From: Candidatus Levyibacteriota bacterium
GTDB taxonomy: Bacteria > Patescibacteriota > Microgenomatia > Levybacterales > UBA12049
NCBI GenBank assembly: GCA_016182425.1
Contig: JACPGP010000030.1
Span: 11,738-75,737, forward strand
Length of the DNA: 64,000 bases
Direction of reading: 5' to 3'
The notes under the pieces were generated by a model, which searched no databases, was not told the origin of the DNA, and saw only the letters and a list, made by a program, of their open reading frames with translations. Position 1 is the stretch's first letter. Every line of letters begins with the position of its first letter. The translations under genes were made by a program, and so were the position numbers. This document shows positions 4,236 to 62,873 of the stretch, piece by piece.

Positions 4236-6397
4236 TCTTTTTCAACGATAATAGTTATATTACGCGATAGTTTAGGAAGAAGTTTTGGCAGAAGTGGGAG
4301 ATTCGGCGAAAGTTTTATCCGCGCGCTGACGACCTGGGGCAGCCTTTTAAGCGTGTTTTGGGCATCGTCGAAAGATTTCCCCTCGACTTGTTTTCCGATT
4401 TTTTCCTTCTCAAATTTAGGCAATAAAAATGTTTGTGCTCGGATAATACCTGTTGCCTCACCGTCATTTTTCTTCTGCTCGTTTTCCACCTGATAGGAAA
4501 TGTCATCTAACACGCCCAAGCGGTTACCCTTTTCTTTTAAGAGATCTTTGGCCAGCTTCCTAAGATCGTTCTCTTGGTAGGAAAGATTCTCGTAGGTGAC
4601 GCTTCCTGCAAGAGTAAATGATTTTGCCTCTTCGTCTATTTTATTGCTGATATTTTTTTGAGAAAACTTGGCATTGGTAATAAGAGGAAAAAGTTTGGTT
4701 TTAGAGTCAATTTTTCCCTCCAGATCTTTTTTGGCTTTTTCCTCAAGCTGTTTTGTTAGTTCAGACACGGCATCCTCAACGTCTTTTTTGGAAACAACGC
4801 TGACTTCCTTTTTTGTTCCACCCGAAAATGCCTCTTCATTTTTCGCTTCTACCGATGCGGCATTAAACGAGGATAGAGTAAATTTGACGCCCGATGGTAA
4901 ATTAAACTCCTTGCCAATATCTTTAGCAATAACCGCCGCTTTGACAGTTTTTTGTCCATCGCTGGCGCCTGATACAGATGCCACTTTCACTGTCTGATCC
5001 AACAGAAACTCCAGTTTGTTGGTGGCTGTCAGCACGGTTCCTTTAGAAAATGTTTGTTCATTTGTCAGGTTGCTGTAAATTGTGATATTACCTTTGGCTT
5101 TTTCTCCTAAGTCTTTTTTGCCTGTGGCAGGTTTTGTTATTTTTCCTTCTTCCTCAACGTTCACTATTTGCGCGGCAATAATCTTTTTCCCCACATCTGT
5201 TGGGGTGACACTTGAAAATGTCACAGCCTGTTTTTGCTCGATGACTTCGGGTTTAACGACCAAGGTGATAGTTGCTTTAAGGAAGAAAACGTAAGAAAGA
5301 AGAATAACAATAGCCAGAAAAACTAGAGCGGGAGGTATAAAAAGAAGGATTTTTTTCCTTGGCGGCTGGTCATAAGACCTGGTAAAGGTGGGGAATCGGA
5401 GCAAGCGGACAGCCGCGAATATTTTTTTTGCGGCAGAAAAAACCATTTTCCAAATTGTCGTAATCAGTTTTTGATGTTGTTTGGTAGCGTAGTGAATTTT
5501 GAGAGAGTCTGCTTTACCAGATGTTTTTTTAATATCTTCTTCTTTAATAAAACCAAATTCTTCTTCTTTTTCTTCTTCTTGTGGTTGTGGTGTGGGCGCG
5601 TTTTCTTCTGTAGAGAGTTCTTCTTCGGTGGCATTTTTTTCCTGGGGCAGCATCTCCAGTCCCATCTGTGATGCCGCTCCAAAAAGGATTGCTCTAATGT
5701 CAAAACCCTTTGGTAAAAGTGTAATCTGCGGGACGTGGAGAAATGGAAGACTTTTGCTCCAGGAGTGTCCAATAAATGTTTGCGAAAGTGTTTCGTTATC
5801 ATCTTTATCTGATAGAACGATAATTCTTGATGGGAGCACTTCGTAGCTGGTAAAGTGATGCAGTAGGCGGTCGGTAATTTTGGCTGCATCATCCTCTATT
5901 TTTGTCCGTTTTGCTTCAATGATTCTTCCCGCGCGAAGGAGCGAAACAATAATGTTTTTTTGCCCGATTTCCACTAGGATTCCCGAAACCGGCGCGCCCT
6001 CTTCTTGCTGAAGAAGGTGCGCAATCGCCTCGTTAATTATTAAAAAGCCTATGGGGATAAGACCAAGGGCATCGCTGGTTTTTTTTAATTTTATCAAGTA
6101 TTCTTTTTTGATTTTTGTTTCTTCTACCCAGTTTTCTTTTATACCAAAAATTGTTTCTTGGGTTTCGATGCCCTCTGGTAAGGCGCTTTCTGCCCCAGAG
6201 ATAGCTTTGTCCAAGACCTCCAGCCACTCCTCTAGGGTAGCCGTTTCCAGATTATTGACGTATGCTTCTTTTTTCCCGATAATCCGTACTACGCCGGTGA
6301 TTTTCTCAAAAATTACAGCCGTGACTTTTTCGTCCCGCAAGAGGAGGGTTAAAAAATATTCTTTTTCTTCTTTTTTCCTCAAAAAAGGCAAATTCAT
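4232..6397 (-). CDS. membrane protein with N-terminal FtsA/PilM-like actin-fold domain and large Lys/Thr/Glu-rich extracytoplasmic region
   Basis: Segments resembling actin-like ATPase phosphate/adenosine motifs (GILVEIGQKNIIVSLLRAGRI, LGLIPIGFLIINEAIAHLL). Acidic low-complexity linker and one TM (LLFIPPALVFLAIVILLSYVFFL). Four-nt overlap with the sortase gene. Confidence 0.35.
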   Translation of the reverse strand: MNLPFLRKKEEKEYFLTLLLRDEKVTAVIFEKITGVVRIIGKKEAYVNNLETATLEEWLEVLDKAISGAESALPEGIETQETIFGIKENWVEETKIKKEYLIKLKKTSDALGLIPIGFLIINEAIAHLLQQEEGAPVSGILVEIGQKNIIVSLLRAGRIIEAKRTKIEDDAAKITDRLLHHFTSYEVLPSRIIVLSDKDDNETLSQTFIGHSWSKSLPFLHVPQITLLPKGFDIRAILFGAASQMGLEMLPQEKNATEEELSTEENAPTPQPQEEEKEEEFGFIKEEDIKKTSGKADSLKIHYATKQHQKLITTIWKMVFSAAKKIFAAVRLLRFPTFTRSYDQPPRKKILLFIPPALVFLAIVILLSYVFFLKATITLVVKPEVIEQKQAVTFSSVTPTDVGKKIIAAQIVNVEEEGKITKPATGKKDLGEKAKGNITIYSNLTNEQTFSKGTVLTATNKLEFLLDQTVKVASVSGASDGQKTVKAAVIAKDIGKEFNLPSGVKFTLSSFNAASVEAKNEEAFSGGTKKEVSVVSKKDVEDAVSELTKQLEEKAKKDLEGKIDSKTKLFPLITNAKFSQKNISNKIDEEAKSFTLAGSVTYENLSYQENDLRKLAKDLLKEKGNRLGVLDDISYQVENEQKKNDGEATGIIRAQTFLLPKFEKEKIGKQVEGKSFDDAQNTLKRLPQVVSARIKLSPNLPLLPKLLPKLSRNITIIVEKE

Positions 6398-6398
6398 A

Positions 6399-8195
6399 TT
6401 ACCCCACCATTGCGTATAGCCGCCTCTGTCCGTGTCCGATATTTTCTTGCTTTATTATTCTAACCTGTTTTAGCTTCGTTGTAAAATCAACGTGCGGTCC
6501 TCCGCAAAATTCGGCCGAGTATGGCTTTTTATTTCCTATAAAATAGACTTTCACGTTGTCTTGATACTTTTCGTCAAAGAGTCCGATTGCCCCTAAGTTT
6601 TTTGCTTCTGTAAGCGGCATGATTTCAAAATGTACCGGCAGGTTTTCTTTTATTTTTTCATTCACAATATCCTCAACACGTCTTAATTGTTCATCGGTCA
6701 ATTTTTTATCATAATTGAAGTCAAAACGAAGCCTCTCCGTTGTAATATTTGAACCTGTTTGGTGGATTTTACTACCAAGCACATCACGGATAGCCTGATG
6801 CAAAAGATGAGTTGCCGTATGCCCCATAATTGTTTTTTCGCTATGGTCTGCTAAGCCCCCAGCAAATTTCTTATTAGCTCCAGCTCTTGAAATATTTTGA
6901 TGTTCTTTCATTTTCTCTGCAAATTCTTGTTCATTAAATAGAAGTCCCAAGCTTTTTATTTGGGTCGGGGAAAGTCCATGAGTTGTATAGATTTCAAATG
7001 CATCTCTAGCTGATATCTCAATTTGGCCTTTCAATTCATCGCCAGTTTTTTTGTATCTACTTTTTATAAATTGTGTGACATCAATTAATAACTTAGTATA
7101 TTTTTGTAATTCCTCATAGAGAGTATTTTTTATGAATTCATAATTTTCGATTAGCTGAGGGTCTGTTTCTTTATATGTTCCAATGATTGAGTCAAGAATT
7201 GAGTAGATGTTATCACTTCCTAGATTATCAGAAGCGCGTCTTATTAAACGTCTTAAAATATATCCTTGTTCTTTATTGGAAGGCGTAACGCCGTTTGCAA
7301 TCATAAAGGCAGCCGAGATAAAATGGTCGGCAATAATACGCATTTCTTTTGCATGGGTTGTATACTTTTTGGCAGTTTGTATTTCGATGGCTTTTATTAT
7401 TGGATTAAACAAACTTGTTTGGAAGATATCTTGTTTGTTTTCAACGGCAGCCAAAAGTCTTTCTAACCCTCCTCCAAAATCTACATTCTTTTTTGAAAGT
7501 GGTTTTAAGCTGTCGTCAGTTGACTTTTTATATTCCATAAAAACGCTATTGCAAATTTCAATATATCTTCCACAATCACAATTAAGATGACATTTTTTTC
7601 CAAATCTTGTGTCATGCGGCGTTTGAAAATCAAAAAAAACTTCGCTGCTTGGTCCTCCAGGTTCGTTTACAGGCATTTTATCTGGTGTACCCGCACGTGA
7701 CCACCAATTTTTATCAGCACCATAGTAAAAAATTCTTCCTTTTGGATCTATGTTATTTTCCTTAAAAATTTCTTCCCAAATTTTTACCGACTCATTATCT
7801 TTTTGTATTTCTTTATATCCATCAAAAACAGTTATGTACAATTTTTCCTTTGGAAGTCCCAAATCTTTTGTTAGGAACTCATACATCCAAGGGAGTTGTT
7901 CTTTTTTAAAATAACCACCTAAAGACCAATTGCCCAGCATGCGAAAAAATGTAGTGTGGCGATTGTCGCCAATTTCATCAATATCTTGTGCCCGAAAGCA
8001 ATTTTGGACGTTAACCAATCGTTTTCCCTGCGGGTGTTCCTCACCTAAAAGGTAGGGAACAAGAGGCTGCATACCAGAGCTGGTAAAAAGAGTCGTTGGA
8101 TCGTTTTCGGGAACGAGAGAAGCGTTGGGGATTTGTTTGTGTTTTTTATCCTTAAAAAAAGATATATATAAATCAACAATATTTTTAGCTGTCAT
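6399..8195 (-). CDS. alaS: alanine--tRNA ligase, short form lacking C-terminal C-Ala domain
   Basis: Class II AlaRS catalytic core (FTSSGMQPLVPY, FRMLGNWSLGGYFK) plus editing-domain HxxxH and CGGPHV motifs. Only 598 aa. Confidence 0.85.
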   Translation of the reverse strand: MTAKNIVDLYISFFKDKKHKQIPNASLVPENDPTTLFTSSGMQPLVPYLLGEEHPQGKRLVNVQNCFRAQDIDEIGDNRHTTFFRMLGNWSLGGYFKKEQLPWMYEFLTKDLGLPKEKLYITVFDGYKEIQKDNESVKIWEEIFKENNIDPKGRIFYYGADKNWWSRAGTPDKMPVNEPGGPSSEVFFDFQTPHDTRFGKKCHLNCDCGRYIEICNSVFMEYKKSTDDSLKPLSKKNVDFGGGLERLLAAVENKQDIFQTSLFNPIIKAIEIQTAKKYTTHAKEMRIIADHFISAAFMIANGVTPSNKEQGYILRRLIRRASDNLGSDNIYSILDSIIGTYKETDPQLIENYEFIKNTLYEELQKYTKLLIDVTQFIKSRYKKTGDELKGQIEISARDAFEIYTTHGLSPTQIKSLGLLFNEQEFAEKMKEHQNISRAGANKKFAGGLADHSEKTIMGHTATHLLHQAIRDVLGSKIHQTGSNITTERLRFDFNYDKKLTDEQLRRVEDIVNEKIKENLPVHFEIMPLTEAKNLGAIGLFDEKYQDNVKVYFIGNKKPYSAEFCGGPHVDFTTKLKQVRIIKQENIGHGQRRLYAMVG

Positions 8196-40994: not shown

Positions 40995-41413
40995 AGTCAC
41001 AAACGAAGCCAACAAAAGCATCAGATATAAAGCGATCGTGGCACATGATTGATGTGAAAGAAAAAATATTGGGAAGGGCTGCCACAGAGATTGCAAAACT
41101 CTTAATGGGGAAAGCAAAACCGTATTTTGTTAGACATCTTGATTGCGGAGATTACGTGGTGGTAATTAATGCGAAAGAAGCAAAAGTCACCGGCGGAAAA
41201 GAGGGTAAGATTTACTATAGATATTCTGGATATCCGGGCGGATTAAAAAAAGAGACGCTTAGTGATCTTCGGCAGAGAAAACCAGAGGAGATTATTATTC
41301 ATGCGGTAAAGGGAATGTTGCCGCAGAACAGATTGCGAGATGCAATGCTTAGGCGGTTATTTGTGTTTGCGGATAAAGAACATCCATACGGTGATAAACT
41401 CAAAACTCAATGA
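40991..41413 (+). CDS. rplM: 50S ribosomal protein L13
   Basis: WHMIDVKEKILGRAATEIAKLLMGK conserved L13 block. Confidence 0.9.
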   Translation: MKSQTKPTKASDIKRSWHMIDVKEKILGRAATEIAKLLMGKAKPYFVRHLDCGDYVVVINAKEAKVTGGKEGKIYYRYSGYPGGLKKETLSDLRQRKPEEIIIHAVKGMLPQNRLRDAMLRRLFVFADKEHPYGDKLKTQ

Positions 41414-41907
41414 AATATATGGCAAAGAAAGAAAAAACAGAAGAAAAAGGAGTAACAAAGAATAAATCTTTAAAAAAGGATTACATTTATGCTCTGGGAA
41501 GGCGAAGAGAAGCTGTGGCGAGAGTGCGTTTTTATCCCAAGTCCCAAACAGAAGTCGTATTGGATGAGAAAAAACTTCAGCCCGGCGAGATCATTGTTAA
41601 TGGACAACCAATTGCCCAATATTTTTTTGGAGAAATTGCTAAAGTAAAATATGAGGGGCCGTTACACATCACCAGCATGCTGGGAAAATGTATAGTGACA
41701 GTGGTTGTTTCGGGTGGAGGAAAGGGCGGCCAGCTAGATGCGATTGTGCATGGCATAGCGCGAGCTATTGTGAAACATGATAAAGAACGGTTTCAATCAA
41801 TTCTTAAAAAGAAAGGGTTTTTAACTCGAGACCCACGCGCAAAAGAACGACGAAAAGTAGGCACAGGCGGAAAAGCGAGGAGAAAAAAACAGAGCCCAAA
41901 ACGATAA
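41410..41907 (+). CDS. rpsI: 30S ribosomal protein S9
   Basis: GRRREAVARVRF ... GGGKGGQ ... conserved S9 blocks and basic C-terminus. Confidence 0.9.
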   Translation: MKYMAKKEKTEEKGVTKNKSLKKDYIYALGRRREAVARVRFYPKSQTEVVLDEKKLQPGEIIVNGQPIAQYFFGEIAKVKYEGPLHITSMLGKCIVTVVVSGGGKGGQLDAIVHGIARAIVKHDKERFQSILKKKGFLTRDPRAKERRKVGTGGKARRKKQSPKR

Positions 41908-42941
41908 TGTTTGGAAAGCTTGTTCTTTTCGGTTCAGGAGAAACTTCCCCAACAGGCAAGAAAATTCATAGGAAGATTCTTCAATCATTTTCTCAAAAAC
42001 AGAATATTACGATTCTTGAAACTCCGGCAGGATTTCAGCCAAACTCTCACTTTGTTGCAGAGGAGATAGCAAAAGTTTTTCGTCAGAGCCTTTTAGAATT
42101 TATTTATGATGTTTTTATAATCCCCGATAACCCCGACAATCTCTCCATTCTCAAACCCCTAAAACAGGCAACATATATTTTCTTAGGTCCTGGTAGCCCA
42201 ACATATACGGTTAGGCAGTTACAAAAAACAAGAACACTTCAAATAATGTTAGATCGTTGGAAGAATGGAGCGACACTTTGTTTGTCAAGCGCTGCCGCAA
42301 TTGCCATTGGTAAATATACTCTTCCCGTTTATGAAATCTATAAAACAGGAAGTGATTTGTATTGGGAGAAAGGACTTAATATCTTTCAGCATGTTGGATT
42401 ATCATTTATTGTTATTACTCATTGGAACAATAAAGAAGGAGGAGAGCATCTTGACACACGGTATTGCTATATGGGGCAAGAGCGATTTGCAAAACTTAGA
42501 AAACTTCTTCCTAAAAATACTGCAATTCTGGGCATTGATGAACATACGGCAATTATTTTTGATTTTGAAAATAGAATATTTTCTATTGAGGGAGTCGGAA
42601 CGGCAACGCTTTTGAAAGATAAGAAAAAAGCAGTTTTTAATAACGGAAACTATTATATGTTTGATTCTTTTATTACATTTTCGCCTCATGTTATTCAATC
42701 ACCCAAAAAACCAATTATTAAAAAAAGGACTGTTGAGTATATAACGATCAAAAAGTACTCATTACCAAAAGATCTCCAAGTTCTTCTTAAACAGCGGGAG
42801 AAAGCAAAAGGAGAAAAAGATTTTACAAAAGCAGATGAGATTCGTCATCTTTTTGAAGAGAAGGGGTACAAAATTGAGGATACAAAAAAAGAACAAAAAG
42901 TCTATAAACAAACATTATCTGGTCAGGGTGGGCAGACTTGA
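41907..42941 (+). CDS. peptidase S51 (cyanophycinase/PepE-like, class I GATase-like fold) domain protein with C-terminal CysRS-tail-like motif
   Basis: LVLFGSGETS, GPGSPTY, LSSAAAIAIG (degenerate GxSAG position) and a His in HVGLSFIVITHW. C-terminal REKAKGEKDFTKADEIRHLFEEKGYKIEDT resembles the extreme C-terminus of cysteinyl-tRNA synthetases. The last 22 nt overlap tRNA-Pro. Confidence 0.45.
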   Translation: MFGKLVLFGSGETSPTGKKIHRKILQSFSQKQNITILETPAGFQPNSHFVAEEIAKVFRQSLLEFIYDVFIIPDNPDNLSILKPLKQATYIFLGPGSPTYTVRQLQKTRTLQIMLDRWKNGATLCLSSAAAIAIGKYTLPVYEIYKTGSDLYWEKGLNIFQHVGLSFIVITHWNNKEGGEHLDTRYCYMGQERFAKLRKLLPKNTAILGIDEHTAIIFDFENRIFSIEGVGTATLLKDKKKAVFNNGNYYMFDSFITFSPHVIQSPKKPIIKKRTVEYITIKKYSLPKDLQVLLKQREKAKGEKDFTKADEIRHLFEEKGYKIEDTKKEQKVYKQTLSGQGGQT

Positions 42942-42995
42942 ACTGCCGACTTCTGGACCCCCAGCCCAGCGTTCTACCAACTGAACTACACCCTG
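42920..42995 (-). tRNA. tRNA-Pro (anticodon GGG)
   Basis: Manual fold of the reverse complement: acceptor CAGGGTG/CACCCTG, D-arm GTTC-AGTTGGTA-GAAC, anticodon stem CTGGG/TCCAG with loop CTGGGGG (GGG at positions 34-36, G37), T-arm GGCAG-TTCAAGT-CTGCC, discriminator A and encoded CCA. Confidence 0.8.
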
Positions 42996-43045
42996 TTTTT
43001 GCTCTCTTGCATTATAACAAAAAGTTGTTACAATGAGAACCAATT

Positions 43046-50376: not shown

Positions 50377-53253
50377 TTAGGTAGTATTGCAGAGCATTTT
50401 GTATTCGCAGTTAAGACACAGAATATTTTTGCTGCAAGAAAAATCACTTTTTTCAATTTCTTCAATTTTTTCCAGTAATTTATCTTCCAGCGTGTCTAAG
50501 TCTGCTTTTGTAAAATGCATAGATTTTTTAATATTTCCATCCAAAAAATGAAGAGTCAGGGTAATATCTTTTGGATCACGATTTAAGATATTATCTTTTA
50601 CTCGAGTGGCGGCCAGAGCATAGATCGCTAGTTGCAGCGCGTGTGCTTTTTGCGCTTTAGGATTGTCTTCTCCGGTTTTATAGTCAATTATCTCAATACC
50701 GTTTCCTTTTGTGTCAATGCGATCAATTTTTCCAAAAACCTTTACACCATTTTTTAACGTAAAAGAAAAAGGAAGTTCCAATTCCAGTGGTTTTATAGCG
50801 GGATGGCACTCCTTTTTATAAAAATCTTCTAACATCTTAAGGCCTTGTGCAAAGCGTTCCTGCTCGTATTTTTTGCCATCATAACCATCAGAAACCCATT
50901 CTTTTTTAAGAATTTCTTTGAACTCTTTAAGAGACGGAGCAGACGAATTCTTTACTCTTTTATAAAAAGAATAAAGGGTGTTATGCATGGTTATACCAAA
51001 GCTCTGAACCGAAGCTGGAGGAGTTGGAATACCTAAAATCGCTTTTGCTTTATAGTGCAATGGGCAAATATCAAACATCTGGAGATTTGAAAATGTGATA
51101 TAGCTTATTTTAAGCGGTTGTTTTTTTTGAACTTTTTCGCTTTTTTTTTCATACGCAGAAATAATATCTGAAAACGAGAGTTGTTGATTATATTTTGCAG
51201 TCGCTTCTTGCTTTGCTAAGTTTGGGAGTGCTTCGTAAATAAAAGGAGAAAGTTTTTTGATCCGTTTCCCAGTGCCGTAGAAATCAGCCGCAGTAAAAAA
51301 AAGACATTCTTTTGCCCGGGTCATTCCTACATAAAAAAGCCTTCTTTCTTCTTGTTCGTGAAAATCAATATTCTCTGGTAGCTTTTCTTTAATAACCTCT
51401 TTTGGCAATGGGATTTTTTCAGCTCTTTCTCGAGAAGGGAAACGGTCCAAGACCAGATTTATTAAAAATACCACCTTAAACTCAAGTCCTTTTGAAGAAT
51501 GAACAGTTAAAATATTCACCGCATTTCTATCTCTGATGTCTATATCTGCTGCTGTGGGACTATCTTCCATTTGAATCATTAACAACAGCCAGTCTGCAAG
51601 AGTAAAAATGTTTGCGTCACTGCGTTCTGTCTCGAATTTTTTAATTCTGTCGAAAAACTTGGCGATATTTTGGACACGCTTTTCTTCTTCGACAGACTTG
51701 GTGTGTAAAAGGGTTTGATAGAGTTTTGAGTCAACTAAAAAATAATATAAAATTTGTCCTGCGCTGTCTTTCTTGACACGCGTTAAATGATGATCAACCA
51801 TTTTTCTAAATTCAAACAATTTTTTTTTAGATTCTGGTTTAATATAGGTTTGATCAGTAAAATTAAGCGCTTCAAAAAGAGGGATATTTTTTCTTTTGGC
51901 AAAATTTATTAGGTAATTAAGATCAGTATAGGGAATATCAAAAATATCCATTGATAAAACTCTAAAAAGAGAAACCGAATCTGAGAGGTTGGTGAGAAAA
52001 ATAAGATACGAAATAAGATCTTTTACCTCCTCTTGTTGAAATAAATATCCAGGGCCTAAAAACTGATAGGGTATCTTGTGTCTTTGCAGAGCGGTTGTGA
52101 TAAGTTGAGAGTGATTATTGGCTCTAACTAAAATTGCTATATCACGCAATTCATAAGATTTCTGATTAAGCTCTGTTATTTTTTTGGCAATTTCTTCCGC
52201 CTCGTCTTCTGCTCGTATTTGATGAATAATTTCTATGTCTTTCTCCGGCGCATTGGAATGACTCTCTAATTTCTTATCAATTTTCTCAACCACTTCCAGC
52301 CTGTTGGGATTATTGTGTTGGATGAGATTGTAAGCTGCATCAAGAATAGTTTTTGTTGATCGGTAATTATCGGTTAAAGTTATTATTTTCGCTTTTTTGA
52401 AGTTTTTCTTAAATTGCAGAACATTAGATACCGCCGCCCCTCGAAAGCGATAGATTGATTGGTCGTCATCAGCCACCACAGCAATATTATGGTCGTCTCC
52501 CGCAAGTAAAATTGCCAACTCATTCTGGGCGTAATTTGTGTCTTGGAATTCGTCAACCAGTAAAAAGCGAAACTGTTTTTGATAATGTTTAAGAATAGTT
52601 TTTCTGTTTCTAAAAAGAAGAAGGGTATTTGAAATAAGATCTGCAAAATCCATTATACTCTCTTTTACTTTAAGTTTTTCATATTCTTTGTAGGCGTGGG
52701 AGAGTTCAAGATAATGATCGATTTCCAATAAATCAGACCCATGCTTTTTCTTTATCCACAAGATATATTCATCTGGTGAAATGTCTTCATCTTTAAGTCT
52801 AGAGAAATGGGTTAGAAGTGCGTCAAGAAATTTGGTGGGATTCCCCAGTGGTCTAAAAAAACTAAGTCCCAATTCGAAAATATGCTGCCGCAAAAGAAGC
52901 ACTGATTCTGCTTGGTTGATAAGCTTAAAATTAGGGTCAAGACCTATGGTATACGCATCATCGCGCAAAACCCTTTCGCAAAAAGAATGAAATGTATGTA
53001 TCCAAAGATTGGTATATCCGTAAGGAAGAAGTATATCAACTCTCTCTTGCATTTCAAAGGCTGCCTTTTCCGTAAATGTAAGAGCAAGGATAGATGGGGG
53101 GGAAATGTTTTTATTAACAATTAGATGTTTGATGCGTTCTGTTATAACAGTTGTTTTTCCAGTTCCAGCCCCTGCGATAATTAAAAGTGGTCCATCTCCA
53201 TGTTCTACCGCTTGTCGTTGTTTTTCATTGAGAATTCTTGTATCTTTTACCAT
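50377..53253 (-). CDS. UvrD/PcrA-family helicase fused to C-terminal PD-(D/E)xK (RecB-like) nuclease with Cys cluster
   Basis: Walker A AGAGTGKTT and UvrD helicase motifs. C-terminal IDRID...IIDYKTG nuclease motif, followed by C-x2-C-x5-C and other Cys suggestive of an Fe-S cluster. Confidence 0.75.
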   Translation of the reverse strand: MVKDTRILNEKQRQAVEHGDGPLLIIAGAGTGKTTVITERIKHLIVNKNISPPSILALTFTEKAAFEMQERVDILLPYGYTNLWIHTFHSFCERVLRDDAYTIGLDPNFKLINQAESVLLLRQHIFELGLSFFRPLGNPTKFLDALLTHFSRLKDEDISPDEYILWIKKKHGSDLLEIDHYLELSHAYKEYEKLKVKESIMDFADLISNTLLLFRNRKTILKHYQKQFRFLLVDEFQDTNYAQNELAILLAGDDHNIAVVADDDQSIYRFRGAAVSNVLQFKKNFKKAKIITLTDNYRSTKTILDAAYNLIQHNNPNRLEVVEKIDKKLESHSNAPEKDIEIIHQIRAEDEAEEIAKKITELNQKSYELRDIAILVRANNHSQLITTALQRHKIPYQFLGPGYLFQQEEVKDLISYLIFLTNLSDSVSLFRVLSMDIFDIPYTDLNYLINFAKRKNIPLFEALNFTDQTYIKPESKKKLFEFRKMVDHHLTRVKKDSAGQILYYFLVDSKLYQTLLHTKSVEEEKRVQNIAKFFDRIKKFETERSDANIFTLADWLLLMIQMEDSPTAADIDIRDRNAVNILTVHSSKGLEFKVVFLINLVLDRFPSRERAEKIPLPKEVIKEKLPENIDFHEQEERRLFYVGMTRAKECLFFTAADFYGTGKRIKKLSPFIYEALPNLAKQEATAKYNQQLSFSDIISAYEKKSEKVQKKQPLKISYITFSNLQMFDICPLHYKAKAILGIPTPPASVQSFGITMHNTLYSFYKRVKNSSAPSLKEFKEILKKEWVSDGYDGKKYEQERFAQGLKMLEDFYKKECHPAIKPLELELPFSFTLKNGVKVFGKIDRIDTKGNGIEIIDYKTGEDNPKAQKAHALQLAIYALAATRVKDNILNRDPKDITLTLHFLDGNIKKSMHFTKADLDTLEDKLLEKIEEIEKSDFSCSKNILCLNCEYKMLCNTT

Positions 53254-56313: not shown

Positions 56314-57306
56314 CTAATCAAAATACAGCTCAGGGTCAGCTGTAATATGTCTCCAATCTATTGGTTTATAGTTAAAAAATGCTGCGGAGGCGATCATGGC
56401 AGCGTTGTCTGTACATAAGTTTTTTGGAGGAACGAAAAGCTCGATTGATGACTGCATAGCTTCTCTCAATTTTTGATTAGCGGCGACACCGCCGGAAAGG
56501 AGAATTGATCTCACTTTATATCTCTGTGCAGCTTTGAGGGTTTTTTGAGCAAGTACATCAATGACTGCGCTTTGTACCCCAGCAGAAATGTCGTTAACCA
56601 TTTGTTCATTAAGCTTTTTTATTTTCTGAACTTCTCGAAAAACTGCAGTTTTTAATCCCGAAAAAGAAAAGTCAAAATCTTCTGAATCAAGAAGTGGTCG
56701 AGGGAATGTAAATCGATTACTTTTTCCCTGCTGGGCTGCCTTTTCAATGGCTGGGCCTCCTGGGTATGAAAGCCCTAAGAGCCTGCCAATTTTATCGAAT
56801 GCTTCGCCTGCTGCATCATCGCGTGTTCCTCCAAGCCACTTTATTTTTCCGTGTTCTTTGAGTAATACCAAATCAGTATGTCCGCCAGAAACAATAAGAG
56901 CAAGAGCAGGAATTTTTGGTATCTCGTAAATAAAGTTTGCATAGATGTGGCCAATGAGGTGATTTACAGGAATAATTGGTTTATTCCAAACATAAGATAA
57001 TGTTTTTGCGGTTTCAACACCAACAAGAAGTGAGCCAATTAACCCCGGGCCATATGTTACCGCTATTGTATCTATTTCTGGACGATAGATGTTAGATTCT
57101 TTGAGGGCTTGTTCAATTACGGGAATAATATATTTTACTTGCCCTCTGGCGGCGATTTCTGGAATAATACCGCCGGTTTTGGCATGGAGAGGAAGAGATG
57201 AGCTAATAATGTTTGAAAGAAGTTTTACTGTTGGGGCTTGCAGATTTGCTTCTACAATTGCAGCGCTTGTTTCATCACACGATGTTTCAATACCTAAAAT
57301 CCTCAC
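56314..57306 (-). CDS. tsaD: tRNA N6-adenosine threonylcarbamoyltransferase
   Basis: MRILGIETSCDETSAAIV start. Kae1/TsaD His-His metal motif region. Confidence 0.85.
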   Translation of the reverse strand: MRILGIETSCDETSAAIVEANLQAPTVKLLSNIISSSLPLHAKTGGIIPEIAARGQVKYIIPVIEQALKESNIYRPEIDTIAVTYGPGLIGSLLVGVETAKTLSYVWNKPIIPVNHLIGHIYANFIYEIPKIPALALIVSGGHTDLVLLKEHGKIKWLGGTRDDAAGEAFDKIGRLLGLSYPGGPAIEKAAQQGKSNRFTFPRPLLDSEDFDFSFSGLKTAVFREVQKIKKLNEQMVNDISAGVQSAVIDVLAQKTLKAAQRYKVRSILLSGGVAANQKLREAMQSSIELFVPPKNLCTDNAAMIASAAFFNYKPIDWRHITADPELYFD

Positions 57307-61031: not shown

Positions 61032-61887
61032 TCTCCATAAAAGCATTCTCAAAACTCTTGCCTATGCAGATATATTTGATTCGCCATTGACGCTTCATCA
61101 GCTTTGGCAATTTCTTATTAGCGAAAGAAGAGTAGATAAAAACGTAGTGGAACGTAGCATAGCAACTATTCTTACTATTGAAAAGATAAATGACTACTTT
61201 TGTTTTCGGGGAAGAGCGCACATCGTAGATAAAAAAATTGCGACTATTGCAGATAGTAGCGAAAAATATAGGAGGGCGGCCAAAGCATCATTATTTCTCT
61301 CACGGATTCCAACAGTTGTTCTTATTGGTGTGAGTGGTGGCTTGGCAGTTGGAAATGTTTCAAAGGATGATGATATTGATTTGTTTATTATTGCCCAAAA
61401 GGGCACTCTATGGATGACACGATTTTTTAGTAACCTTTTATTAGATGCACTTAGAATGCGCAGAAAAAGAGGAGCAAGGGATATTTCTGGTAAAATATGT
61501 CTTAATATGTTTATCGAGGAGAGGGGTATTGCAATTCCTAAGAACAAACAAAATTTATATACTGCACACGAAATTGCGCAGATGATATTACTTTTTGAGA
61601 GAAATAATACCTATCAACGATTTTTACAGGCAAATACGTGGGTAGAGAAGTTTTTACCAAATAGTATAGATATTAAGAAAAAATTACCAATCTTAATATC
61701 TGAATATCTTAGTATCTTTTTATCTTCATTCGAGTTTCTTGCAAAGAAAGTACAGCTTTGGTATATGAAGAAGCATAGGACAAGAGAGGAAATTAATGAT
61801 TATATACTTGCTTTTTACCCATTTGATTATGAGAAGAAGTTGTTAAAAAAATATGAAGAGAGACTTAAAAAGTATCATATAGCATGA
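61018..61887 (+). CDS. Pol-beta-superfamily nucleotidyltransferase domain protein of unknown function
   Basis: hG[GS]-x(9-13)-DhDh signature: IGVSGGLAVGNVSKDDDIDLFI. Overlapping ends with neighbours on both sides. Confidence 0.4.
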   Translation: MQNFSLHKSILKTLAYADIFDSPLTLHQLWQFLISERRVDKNVVERSIATILTIEKINDYFCFRGRAHIVDKKIATIADSSEKYRRAAKASLFLSRIPTVVLIGVSGGLAVGNVSKDDDIDLFIIAQKGTLWMTRFFSNLLLDALRMRRKRGARDISGKICLNMFIEERGIAIPKNKQNLYTAHEIAQMILLFERNNTYQRFLQANTWVEKFLPNSIDIKKKLPILISEYLSIFLSSFEFLAKKVQLWYMKKHRTREEINDYILAFYPFDYEKKLLKKYEERLKKYHIA

Positions 61888-62873
61888 GACGATTTCGACT
61901 TGCTGCATGCGGGGGAACATTTGATCATTTTCATAAAGGACATAGAGATTTTTTGCAATTTGCCCTAAAGAATGCAGATAAGCTTATTATTGGTATCACA
62001 AGCGACAAGTATCCTGATAATAAACGGGAGGAGATAGAAAGCTTTTCTTCTCGGAAGTTAAGCGTTTATTCTTTTTTAGAAAGAGAAAGCGCTATAAACA
62101 AGACAGAAATTATATCAATAGATGATGTGTATGGCCCAACGATTTCAAAAGCAGTTCCAATAGAGGCAATTATTGTTTCTGAACAGACGCAAAAAGGCGC
62201 AGAGCTTATTAACAATTACAGGCAAGAACTTGGGTTATTGTCTCTTAAGATGCTGGTGTCTCCCATGACAAAAGCGCAAGATAATGGTATTATTTCTTCC
62301 TTAAGAATTAGGCGTGGTGAGATTGACAGGGAAGGAGAGTTGTATATGCATCCTTCTTTGTTATTCCAAAAGCGAGTGCTCCCAGAAGACCTACGACAAA
62401 AACTTAAAAAGCCTTTGGGAGTTCTTTTAAGAGGCAAAAGCATCCTTCGTGGTCTTGATCCTCAAAAAACAATAACAGTAGGAGATGTTGTTACAAAAAC
62501 GTGTAATGAGTCATCATTTGGTCAAAAAATATCGGTGATTGATTTTTATGTTGGAAGAGAAAAAAAATTTTCCAATATTTTAGAGCTTGGTTTTTTGGGG
62601 AAAGAGGAAATAATGTCAGTTACTAATCCTGCTGGAAGTTTAACGCCAGAACTTTTCAAAGCGGCAAGAGATATTTTTCTTACAGAAAAAGACAAGCGAT
62701 GCGTTGTAAAAGTTGAGGGAGAAGAAGATTTAGCAGTTTTGCCATTTCTACTTGCTGCTCCTTTGAGTTTTACCATTCTGTACGGACAGCCAAATGTTGG
62801 AGTTGTAAGAGTGAATGTTTCTGAAGAAATGAAGAACGTTGCCCGTAATATTGTTTCTCAATTCATCTCATAG
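61884..62873 (+). CDS. fusion protein: archaeal-type phosphopantetheine adenylyltransferase (N-terminal) + DUF359/COG1909-like domain (possible GTP-dependent dephospho-CoA kinase) (C-terminal)
   Basis: N-terminal CGGTFDHFHKGH, GITSD, AIIVSEQTQKGAELIN and ISSLRIRRG match archaeal PPAT. The C-terminal ~180 aa carry GDVVT and VEGEEDLAVLP motifs. Confidence 0.55.
   Translation: MRRFRLAACGGTFDHFHKGHRDFLQFALKNADKLIIGITSDKYPDNKREEIESFSSRKLSVYSFLERESAINKTEIISIDDVYGPTISKAVPIEAIIVSEQTQKGAELINNYRQELGLLSLKMLVSPMTKAQDNGIISSLRIRRGEIDREGELYMHPSLLFQKRVLPEDLRQKLKKPLGVLLRGKSILRGLDPQKTITVGDVVTKTCNESSFGQKISVIDFYVGREKKFSNILELGFLGKEEIMSVTNPAGSLTPELFKAARDIFLTEKDKRCVVKVEGEEDLAVLPFLLAAPLSFTILYGQPNVGVVRVNVSEEMKNVARNIVSQFIS

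Follow-up and report, generated by a model that had tools for sequence, protein, structure and literature searches.

An S51 peptidase-like domain joined to the anticodon-binding tail of cysteinyl-tRNA synthetase: a widespread protein family that may act on Cys-tRNA-Cys

In a stretch of 64,000 nucleotides from a Candidatus Levyibacteriota genome (contig JACPGP010000030.1, positions 11,738 to 75,737; hereafter the window), we analyzed a complete open reading frame (ORF) of 344 amino acids, located at 41907..42941 on the + strand. According to the ORF list and Pfam, its product joins an S51-like hydrolase domain, through a linker, to a mini-domain of the type that binds the anticodon in cysteinyl-tRNA synthetase (CysRS). 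The best reading of this protein, one that we hold tentatively and would put somewhat short of an even chance, is that of a serine acyl-hydrolase or transferase which docks on tRNA-Cys and acts on Cys-tRNA-Cys. The gene itself is not new: NCBI holds an identical protein, under the name 'Type 1 glutamine amidotransferase-like domain-containing protein [Candidatus Levybacteria...]', and it is a typical member of a common, uncharacterized family. What is new is the functional reading. The original prediction, made from the letters of the window, had proposed just such a union of an S51-like domain with a CysRS C-terminal tail, and both parts indeed score above the curated thresholds of Pfam and are matched in phmmer and profile searches as well.

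The S51 domain, of the PepE/cyanophycinase fold, covers approximately residues 5-255 (41919..42671, + strand) and was delimited using Pfam (PF03575), an AlphaFold2 (AF2) model and Foldseek. Namely, Pfam Peptidase_S51 matches residues 5-218 with an E-value of 1.4e-8 and 35.1 bits against a cut-off of 23.9, while the AF2 model, based on 72 homologues, reaches a predicted local distance difference test (pLDDT) score of 93.7 and a predicted template modeling (pTM) score of 0.81, with pLDDT values above 90 across most of the S51 domain. The only weak spots of the model are the linker, where pLDDT falls to its lowest internal values of 73-84, and the extreme C-terminus. When the model is compared with the PDB using Foldseek, the top 20 matches are all S51 structures, the best being 6nqc (E 1.5e-16, template modeling (TM) score 0.81 normalized to the target), and with cyanophycinase (3en0/7uqw) and PepE (6a4r/1fy2) among the further matches; the S51 E-values range from 1e-16 to 1e-9. 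In a phmmer search of the PDB, the N-terminal part again finds 6nqc, annotated as 'cyanophycinase-like exopeptidase', at 1.4e-5, and a profile of the family raises this match to 3e-18.

Does such a fold still carry a working active site? Here, the triad positions were assigned from HMMER alignments to 6nqc, and residue conservation was counted over 389 aligned family members from at least three phyla. Ser128 (codon AGC, 42288..42290, +), the predicted nucleophile in the motif L-S-S-A-A-A (LCLSSAAAIA), pairs with the serine of GCSAGAM in 6nqc, His172 (codon CAT, 42420..42422, +), the predicted triad histidine in the motif HWNN, pairs with VIPHFN, and Glu212 (codon GAA, 42540..42542, +), the predicted triad acid in the motif GIDEHTA, pairs with GIDEVTA. 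It had been suspected earlier that this site is possibly degenerate and the protein binding-only, a suspicion which the relatives contradict: Ser128 is kept in 388/389, His172 in 388/388 and Glu212 in 385/387 of them. The canonical G-x-S-A-G motif is absent, its place at the predicted nucleophile elbow being taken by a family-specific [AS]-S-A-A, with alanine or serine at position 127, serine at 128, alanine at 129 and alanine at 130 (366/389). What is more, about 30 further positions are equally fixed, including GSGE at 9-12, TPAGFQxN at 39-46, GPGSPTY at 94-100, PVYEIYKxG at 140-148, W153, HWNN at 172-175, D183-T184, C187 (375/389), G190 and R193. Because both the triad and these approximately 30 pocket residues are near-invariant, catalysis in a defined pocket is the more natural expectation than a relic that only binds. 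In terms of class, the protein is not a cyanophycinase orthologue, since it scores 33.2 bits with the cyanophycinase equivalog TIGR02069, far below the cut-off of 126.6. Nor is it a class I glutamine amidotransferase, as the Cys-His-Glu triad of that class would require a cysteine where 388 of 389 relatives have the nucleophilic serine; the 'glutamine amidotransferase-like' of the NCBI name covers the superfamily fold only.

The second element is the CysS_C mini-domain at approximately residues 286-335 (42762..42911, +), homologous to residues ~403-460 of E. coli CysRS and seen in Pfam, in profile searches and as a well-modeled unit (pLDDT 95-98). It is separated from the S51 domain by a variable linker (approximately residues 256-285, 42672..42761, +), whose alignment columns are gappy and poorly conserved. 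Pfam CysS_C (PF23493, 'cysteinyl-tRNA ligase anticodon binding domain') matches residues 286-331 at E 9.4e-6, with 26.1 bits against a cut-off of 23, and phmmer against the PDB aligns the tail with the last 48 residues (452-499) of the CysRS 3sp1 at 1.8e-5. The family profile finds the C-termini of five CysRS structures at E-values from 2.1e-12 (3tqo) to 2.2e-7, spanning residues 403-460 in the E. coli enzyme (1li5/1u0b), in line with the proposed kinship of the tail with the CysRS C-terminus. With the cysS models, only model positions ~416-486, that is, the extreme C-terminus, are aligned, at 20-24 bits against cut-offs of 340-780. In particular, the window protein lacks the Rossmann catalytic domain with HIGH and KMSKS, as well as any connective-peptide (CP) or stem-contact (SC)-fold domain. 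It is no CysRS, the catalytic domain being missing.

Which of the residues known to touch the anticodon has the tail retained? In E. coli CysRS, the anticodon is contacted by Arg427, Trp432, Asp436 and Arg439, with Arg427 hydrogen-bonding O6 of G34, as laid out in 2026 work on CysRS engineering based on 1U0B (PMC13449415). All four have counterparts in the window protein that are held across the family: R427 corresponds to K301 (arginine or lysine in 363/363), W432 to F306 (tryptophan, phenylalanine or tyrosine in 354/359), D436 to D310 (aspartate in 351/357) and R439 to R313 (arginine in 354/357). The same applies to R423, which corresponds to R297 (arginine in 356/363), and to D451, which corresponds to D325 (aspartate in 348/354), while G446 is matched by G320. 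Since base-contacting residues have been kept over such a wide phylogenetic span, we infer that the ligand is probably still the GCA anticodon of tRNA-Cys; their conservation is otherwise hard to explain.

The tail is present in 356 of the 389 family members (92%), and in one group of relatives it is part of something larger. Namely, in long relatives of 400-450 amino acids the S51 domain is separated from the tail by ~90 additional residues of helical character, and a profile of their C-terminal region matches residues 360-487 of the CysRS 8qhp at E 1.4e-17 and residues 337-460 of E. coli CysRS (1li5/1u0b) at 8.8e-14. Residues 337-460 we take, following the 1LI5/1U0B work, to be the helical bundle plus the C-terminal alpha/beta domain. 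Judging by these alignments, the long forms carry the complete anticodon-binding half of CysRS, helical bundle and C-terminal domain alike. The helical bundle, which binds the anticodon stem, is absent from the window protein, a short form with a linker of ~30 residues in its place. At the other extreme stand tail-less members of 264-289 amino acids (P0029, P0032-P0037 and P0039, the last at L174:4001-4846), which are the closest relatives in the S51 domain, at 55-59% identity; no stand-alone tail gene was seen beside them.

The family as a whole is large and so far uncharacterized. Of the 8,000 candidates that were scored in a homologue search with the window protein, 7,005 matched at E <= 1e-3, and a long-form query gave at least 7,997 further matches at E <= 1e-30. 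In a library clustered at 50% identity, 1,055 clusters match at E <= 1e-3, 327 of them at E <= 1e-30, and among GTDB contigs, with one genome per species, a relative is encoded in at least 599 of 600 matching stretches, the best 80 being all from Chloroflexota. The lineages concerned include Chloroflexota, the candidate phyla radiation (CPR), Desulfobacterales and others. Publicly, relatives go under the names 'cyanophycinase-like exopeptidase', 'peptidase E' and 'hypothetical protein'. Some (P0005, P0076, P0095 and P0307, the last by its UniRef name) are labeled 'cysteinyl-tRNA synthetase' or 'Cysteinyl-tRNA ligase...', with no catalytic domain of that enzyme, which is an annotation error spread from the 50-residue tail. 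Literature searches on S51 or cyanophycinase-like proteins together with CysRS or tRNA, and on related thiol topics, returned nothing on the architecture, nor is it mentioned in a 2026 review of aminoacyl-tRNA-dependent enzymes or in a 2017 survey of SepRS. In other words, of the two things that together were to refute the original prediction, namely that the architecture is both common and already characterized, the former is true, with thousands of copies, and the latter was not found. As a separate observation, two proteins from Anaerolineales (P0157 and P0275, 448-558 amino acids) carry a family-2 glycosyltransferase (GT2) domain C-terminal to the CysS_C tail, and a GT2 gene lies ~2.6 kb downstream of a CPR member (L171:8624-9553); these fusions and this neighbor hint at a sugar-linked acceptor.

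A clear operon surrounds the long forms that were obtained from metagenomes and that, where named, are assigned to Desulfobacterales or Deltaproteobacteria. It runs in the order [S51 paralogue], family gene, [two GFO/IolG-like oxidoreductases], GNAT (Acetyltransf_6/FemAB_like), family-4 glycosyltransferase (GT4), PIG-L, [Ino1, HAD], where brackets mark genes that come and go; it is found, for example, at L125:7179-16689, L179:10001-14791 and L088:7223-13917, and in a minimal four-gene version in the Desulfobacterales metagenome-assembled genome GCA_016784985.1. Counting the 24 loci of the Desulfobacterales clade with at least 2.5 kb of downstream sequence, a GNAT neighbor occurs in 14, a GT4 in 13, the GFO pair in 12, a PIG-L in 10 and Ino1 in 4, while a canonical S51 paralogue lies upstream in 7 of 28 long-form loci. 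A second long-form clade has none of these neighbors (0/11), with the exception of a single PIG-L match (1/11). The GT4 has mycothiol MshA as its best NCBIfam match (5.7e-74, below the equivalog cut-off), the best matches of PIG-L are BshB1, BshB2, Mca and MshB, and the GFO proteins are similar to inositol 2-dehydrogenase as well as to sugar dehydrogenases. As for the GNAT, its AF2 model (pLDDT 92.7, pTM 0.88) has as its 19 best PDB matches, at TM scores of 0.53-0.68, only aminoacyl-tRNA-dependent transferases: FemX, FemA, Sba18/Sbb17 ('aminoacyl-tRNA-dependent peptide synthase complexed with streptothrisamine') and the C-terminal domains of MprF and aminoacyl-phosphatidylglycerol synthase. 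A role of this GNAT as an MshD-like enzyme was considered and is disfavored, with tandem GNATs that use acetyl-CoA at TM scores of 0.37-0.49 and MshD outside the top 50.

In the operon thus described, chemistry of the N-acetylglucosamine (GlcNAc)-inositol type comes together with charged tRNA, to which two features point independently, one of them being specific for tRNA-Cys. This combination suggests that a compound like Cys-GlcN-inositol, i.e. one resembling mycothiol or bacillithiol, is made in a tRNA-dependent manner outside Actinobacteria, and we found no paper describing such a route. Genes for MshC or for a CysRS catalytic domain were not detected in the 179 flanks with E. coli CysRS as the query, which is a weak test, given that even the tails went undetected at single-sequence sensitivity. 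The earlier idea that the protein has a tRNA- or aminoacyl-tRNA-directed activity gains support from three sides, namely from the anticodon-contact residues kept in ~355 relatives, from the full CysRS region in the long forms and from the FemX-like operon partner.

How would a protein of this kind work? We envisage a cytosolic two-domain enzyme, whose C-terminal mini-domain would read the GCA anticodon and thereby dock on tRNA-Cys, as residue conservation suggests. Ser128 of the predicted Ser128-His172-Glu212 triad would then attack the ester that links cysteine to the 3' end of the charged tRNA-Cys and give a cysteinyl-enzyme, with the acyl group on Ser128. This intermediate would be resolved either by water, as in deacylation or quality control, or through transfer of the cysteinyl group to an amine acceptor. 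All of these steps, from the binding of tRNA-Cys and the attack on the ester to the destination of the acyl group, are presumed. PepE and other S51 enzymes cut immediately behind an N-terminal residue whose amino group is free. This is also the geometry of an aminoacyl ester, which speaks for an attack on Cys-tRNA-Cys by the S51 domain. What is more, the order of domains, catalytic at the N-terminus and anticodon reader at the C-terminus, mirrors that of CysRS. In Desulfobacterales, the long form could be a part of a tRNA-dependent Cys-GlcN-inositol route, while in the present Levybacteria genome, where the partner families are absent from the 64-kb window, the reaction may be plain hydrolysis or transfer to some acceptor. 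Namely, tblastn of the window with the Fem-like, MshA-like, PIG-L, Ino1, GFO, HAD and alpha/beta-hydrolase families gave nothing at E <= 1e-3.

That said, several points weigh against a tRNA-Cys-docked enzyme. First, a monomeric short form of ~340 amino acids, devoid of the CysRS helical bundle, may be too small for the ~70 Å between the anticodon and the CCA end, unless it dimerizes or its linker is extended. Second, about 8% of the members have no tail, which means that the catalytic domain can work without the anticodon reader. Third, neither a tRNA-Cys gene nor cysS is consistently adjacent to family genes, and the contexts outside Desulfobacterales (alpha/beta-hydrolase, UDG, QueA and ribosomal genes) provide no direct link to tRNA-Cys. 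Finally, the Fem-like enzyme of the operon could by itself account for the transfer from Cys-tRNA, and this blurs the role of the S51 protein. The S51 protein could be the one that transfers the cysteine, in which case the Fem-like enzyme would contribute another group, it could assist as a hydrolase or in proofreading, or it could be an adaptor that specifically presents tRNA-Cys to the Fem-like enzyme.

Taken at its most ambitious, the proposal of a tRNA-Cys-docked enzyme would define a new enzyme class, i.e. an S51 acyl-transferase steered by a CysRS-derived reader, taking cysteine from Cys-tRNA-Cys and tied to tRNA-dependent thiol biosynthesis. We regard this version as possible, if on balance improbable. 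Together with the FemX-like transferase, the MshA-like glycosyltransferase, PIG-L and Ino1, such an enzyme would make up an ATP-independent thiol route in place of MshC or BshC, and the short forms of CPR and Chloroflexota would employ the same donor chemistry on other acceptors.

Could the tail simply have been re-used? The strongest alternative, which we consider unlikely and nonetheless worth weighing, is an ordinary S51 peptidase or amidase working on a small peptide, an aminoacyl-sugar or a cyanophycin-like substrate, in which the tail would serve in oligomerization or in the binding of another RNA or a polyanion. That the nearest structures are peptidases, that tail-less members exist and that no tRNA gene is linked to the family all speak for it. 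So does the company that the genes keep. In our Chloroflexota context sample of 86 loci (80 Chloroflexota genome loci and 6 others), the commonest neighbor of short forms is an Abhydrolase_1 alpha/beta-hydrolase, encoded on the same strand in 25/86 and often separated by a gap of 0-7 nt or overlapping (e.g. L068:5095-5979, L077:2604-3470 and L084:7135-8001, together with 22 other loci), and this coupled gene, along with the S51 paralogue upstream in 7 of the 28 long-form loci, would fit a hydrolytic pathway. The same pairing is seen in a separate long-form lineage (L084-L087) in the order GFO, GFO, alpha/beta-hydrolase, family gene; the best NCBIfam matches of the alpha/beta-hydrolase are generic, to haloalkane dehalogenase, MenH and the proline iminopeptidase family. 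However, had the tail been re-purposed, one would hardly expect the CysRS residues that contact the bases to stay near-invariant across phyla, or the tail to occur alongside the CysRS helical bundle, as it does in the long forms, and the motifs of the substrate pocket are unlike those of PepE and cyanophycinase, as the low equivalog score (33 bits vs 126.6) also indicates. As an aside on the alpha/beta-hydrolase loci, in seven from Anaerolineae (e.g. L029:5667-5993) an AhpC/redoxin-like ORF of the thiol peroxidase type lies between the alpha/beta-hydrolase and the family gene, of which it is the immediate upstream neighbor.

A less probable alternative still, in our view, is that the protein is an adaptor or sequestering factor for tRNA-Cys that hands tRNA-Cys, charged or not, to another enzyme, its S51 domain being a binding or proofreading module; the binding-only idea belongs here as well. 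A FemX-like transferase is already at hand in the operon, with the order from family gene to Fem-like gene conserved. FemX-type enzymes recognize mainly the acceptor arm, and an anticodon reader could thus lend them additional specificity. Against this, the invariant Ser/His/Glu triad and the approximately 30 pocket residues argue for catalysis, and no Fem-like gene is found near most members, including those of Chloroflexota, CPR and the second long-form clade.

More doubtful yet, and in our opinion quite improbable, is local hydrolysis at the anticodon itself, in which the docked protein would act on a modified nucleotide of the tRNA-Cys anticodon loop and cleave an ester or amide there, not at the acceptor end. 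In its favor, the catalytic domain of the short forms is only ~30 linker residues away from the anticodon reader, and in 14 loci of Chloroflexota the tRNA modification gene queA is found 2-3 kb upstream. However, the anticodon loop of tRNA-Cys is not known to carry any modification with a hydrolyzable ester or amide, and the long forms copy the layout of CysRS, with the N-terminal domain placed towards the acceptor arm. The linkage to queA is confined to one lineage and, like that to UDG (19 loci) and pyrimidine-nucleoside phosphorylase (13 loci, both again out of 86), looks like inherited lineage synteny. Lastly, an artifact at the end of the ribosomal operon, be it a chance extension of an ORF, a mis-assembly or a pseudogene, is refuted by the occurrence of the same architecture in more than 7,000 proteins and 327 clusters (50% identity, E <= 1e-30) and by the pLDDT of 93.7, even if the last 9 codons (336-344), reading through into a tRNA gene, do look accidental.

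Turning to the locus, the window has a CPR-like layout, in which rpoBC is followed by the ribosomal cluster and then by recA-recX-rny. The last gene of the ribosomal cluster, rpsI (41410..41907, +), ends with a TAA stop at 41905-41907, whose last base is also the first base of the ORF's ATG at 41907-41909 (TAATG, 41905-41909), and because of this overlap the ORF is expected to be translationally coupled to rpsI. On the other side, a convergent tRNA-Pro(GGG) with an encoded CCA lies at 42920..42995 on the - strand (ARAGORN; Rfam 42923-42995, 64 bits) and shares 22 nt (42920-42941) with the 3' end of the ORF. Both overlaps had been noted before and are confirmed here by the sequence and by the two tRNA predictions. 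The overlap concerns a non-conserved C-terminal extension (residues 336-344, TLSGQGGQT, plus the stop codon; 42912..42941, +), recognizable by alignment and pLDDT: residues 338-344 (SGQGGQT), those within the tRNA gene, face gaps in most relatives, and the final ~5-7 of them, beyond the conserved domain, have pLDDT values below 50. A scan between the ORF and the tRNA-Pro gave no terminator-like site. Directly upstream of the tRNA-Pro, in the 50-nt gap before recA, there is a sigma-70-like, promoter-like site (43011..43039, -; TTCTCA-17-TATAAT with an upstream TG, i.e. extended), a match to the consensus alone.

In the orthologous Levybacteria locus L169, which encodes a protein with 58% identity within the same order rpsI-gene-recA-recX-rny, the gene ends at 6038 and the tRNA-Pro(GGG) lies at 6541-6612, ~500 nt past the stop, without overlap. 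Because the overlapped extension is non-conserved and of low pLDDT, and because the overlap is absent from L169, we take it to be incidental. Across 120 related loci, there is no tRNA gene that is a consistent neighbor: tRNA-Pro occurs in Levybacteria only, and tRNA-Glu follows the family gene in three. The weight that had been given to the neighboring tRNA-Pro is in this sense not upheld, the expected partner being tRNA-Cys. The fusion to the ribosomal cluster is real in the window, as proposed, and at the same time specific to Levybacteria, other CPR members being found next to genes for ATP synthase, GT2 or BacA. Both this fusion and the overlap with tRNA-Pro are, in other words, features of a compact Levybacteria genome and not of the system. 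Among individual tRNA neighbors we note, as cases too few for evidence, tRNA-Gly and tRNA-Cys ~1.7-2 kb upstream in two Pelolinea loci (L020:4271-4342; L064:272-343) and a tRNA-SeC ~290 nt upstream in one Anaerolineales locus (L049:5618-5712, - strand).

Pfam searches with ten further ORFs of the window revealed no cysS. In another single ORF of the window (61884-62870, +), a cytidylyltransferase-like domain (PF01467, PPAT-like) is joined with DUF359 (PF04019), the dephospho-CoA kinase of the archaeal type, and the product may be a fused enzyme for the last two steps of coenzyme A synthesis in a CPR bacterium. An AddA-like UvrD helicase fused to a PD-(D/E)XK nuclease (50380-53253, -) and tsaD (56317-57306, -) are ordinary genes.

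If the functional reading holds, this widespread family would represent an unrecognized use of charged tRNA outside of translation. For sulfate-reducing and other anaerobic bacteria, it would mean a tRNA-dependent route to low-molecular-weight thiols, and it would bear on the questions of which thiols occur in such anaerobes and how cysteine is attached in the course of their synthesis. In the case of CPR, a gene that is coupled to the end of a ribosomal operon and targets tRNA-Cys would be a new part of a minimal translation-associated toolkit. At a more practical level, the recurrent labels 'cysteinyl-tRNA synthetase', 'peptidase E' and 'cyanophycinase-like exopeptidase' are corrected by the analysis.

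It is instructive to set the window protein beside the systems from which its parts are known. With the members of MEROPS family S51 (PepE 1fy2/6a4r, CphB 3en0/7uqw and the acI-B1 actinobacterial peptidase 6nqc), it shares the fold and the positions of Ser, His and Glu, while its own family has invariant motifs of a different make (GSGE, TPAGFQxN, GPGSPTY, PVYEIYKxG, HWNNxEGG..DT..C.MG..R); moreover, PepE, cyanophycinase and 6nqc have no tail derived from a tRNA synthetase, whereas the window protein does. To our knowledge, the S51 fold has never been linked to tRNA, and we know of no described trans-acting aminoacyl-tRNA hydrolase or transferase that uses an S51 domain or the anticodon reader of CysRS. 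The trans-editing deacylases YbaK/ProXp, AlaX and DTD offer a working analogy alone, as hydrolases which act in trans on charged tRNA, sometimes with synthetase-derived domains. They have a different catalytic fold, none has the S51 serine triad, and the window protein gave no match to YbaK/ProX, AlaX or DTD in Pfam or NCBIfam at E <= 10. Fem-type transferases (FemX, FemA, Sba18/Sbb17 and the C-domain of MprF) acylate amines from aminoacyl-tRNA, including amino-sugar-like acceptors (Sba18/streptothrisamine), and do so with a tandem GNAT fold in contrast to the S51 fold of the window protein; there is no Fem-like gene in the window. With the E. coli CysRS-tRNA-Cys complex 1U0B, the window tail shares the anticodon-binding region, while the catalytic domain of CysRS is not shared. 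A parallel in terms of recruitment is that of MshC and BshC, where parts of CysRS, of which MshC is a paralogue, have likewise been recruited for non-translational cysteine chemistry. MshC is reported to keep the catalytic domain of CysRS and to use ATP and free cysteine, with no tRNA (PMC9736012). The window protein is its mirror image, keeping the opposite half of CysRS and no ATP-binding domain, and in Desulfobacterales, the S51-tail protein and the Fem-like gene occupy the very place beside MshA-like and MshB/BshB-like genes where one would expect the cysteine ligase.

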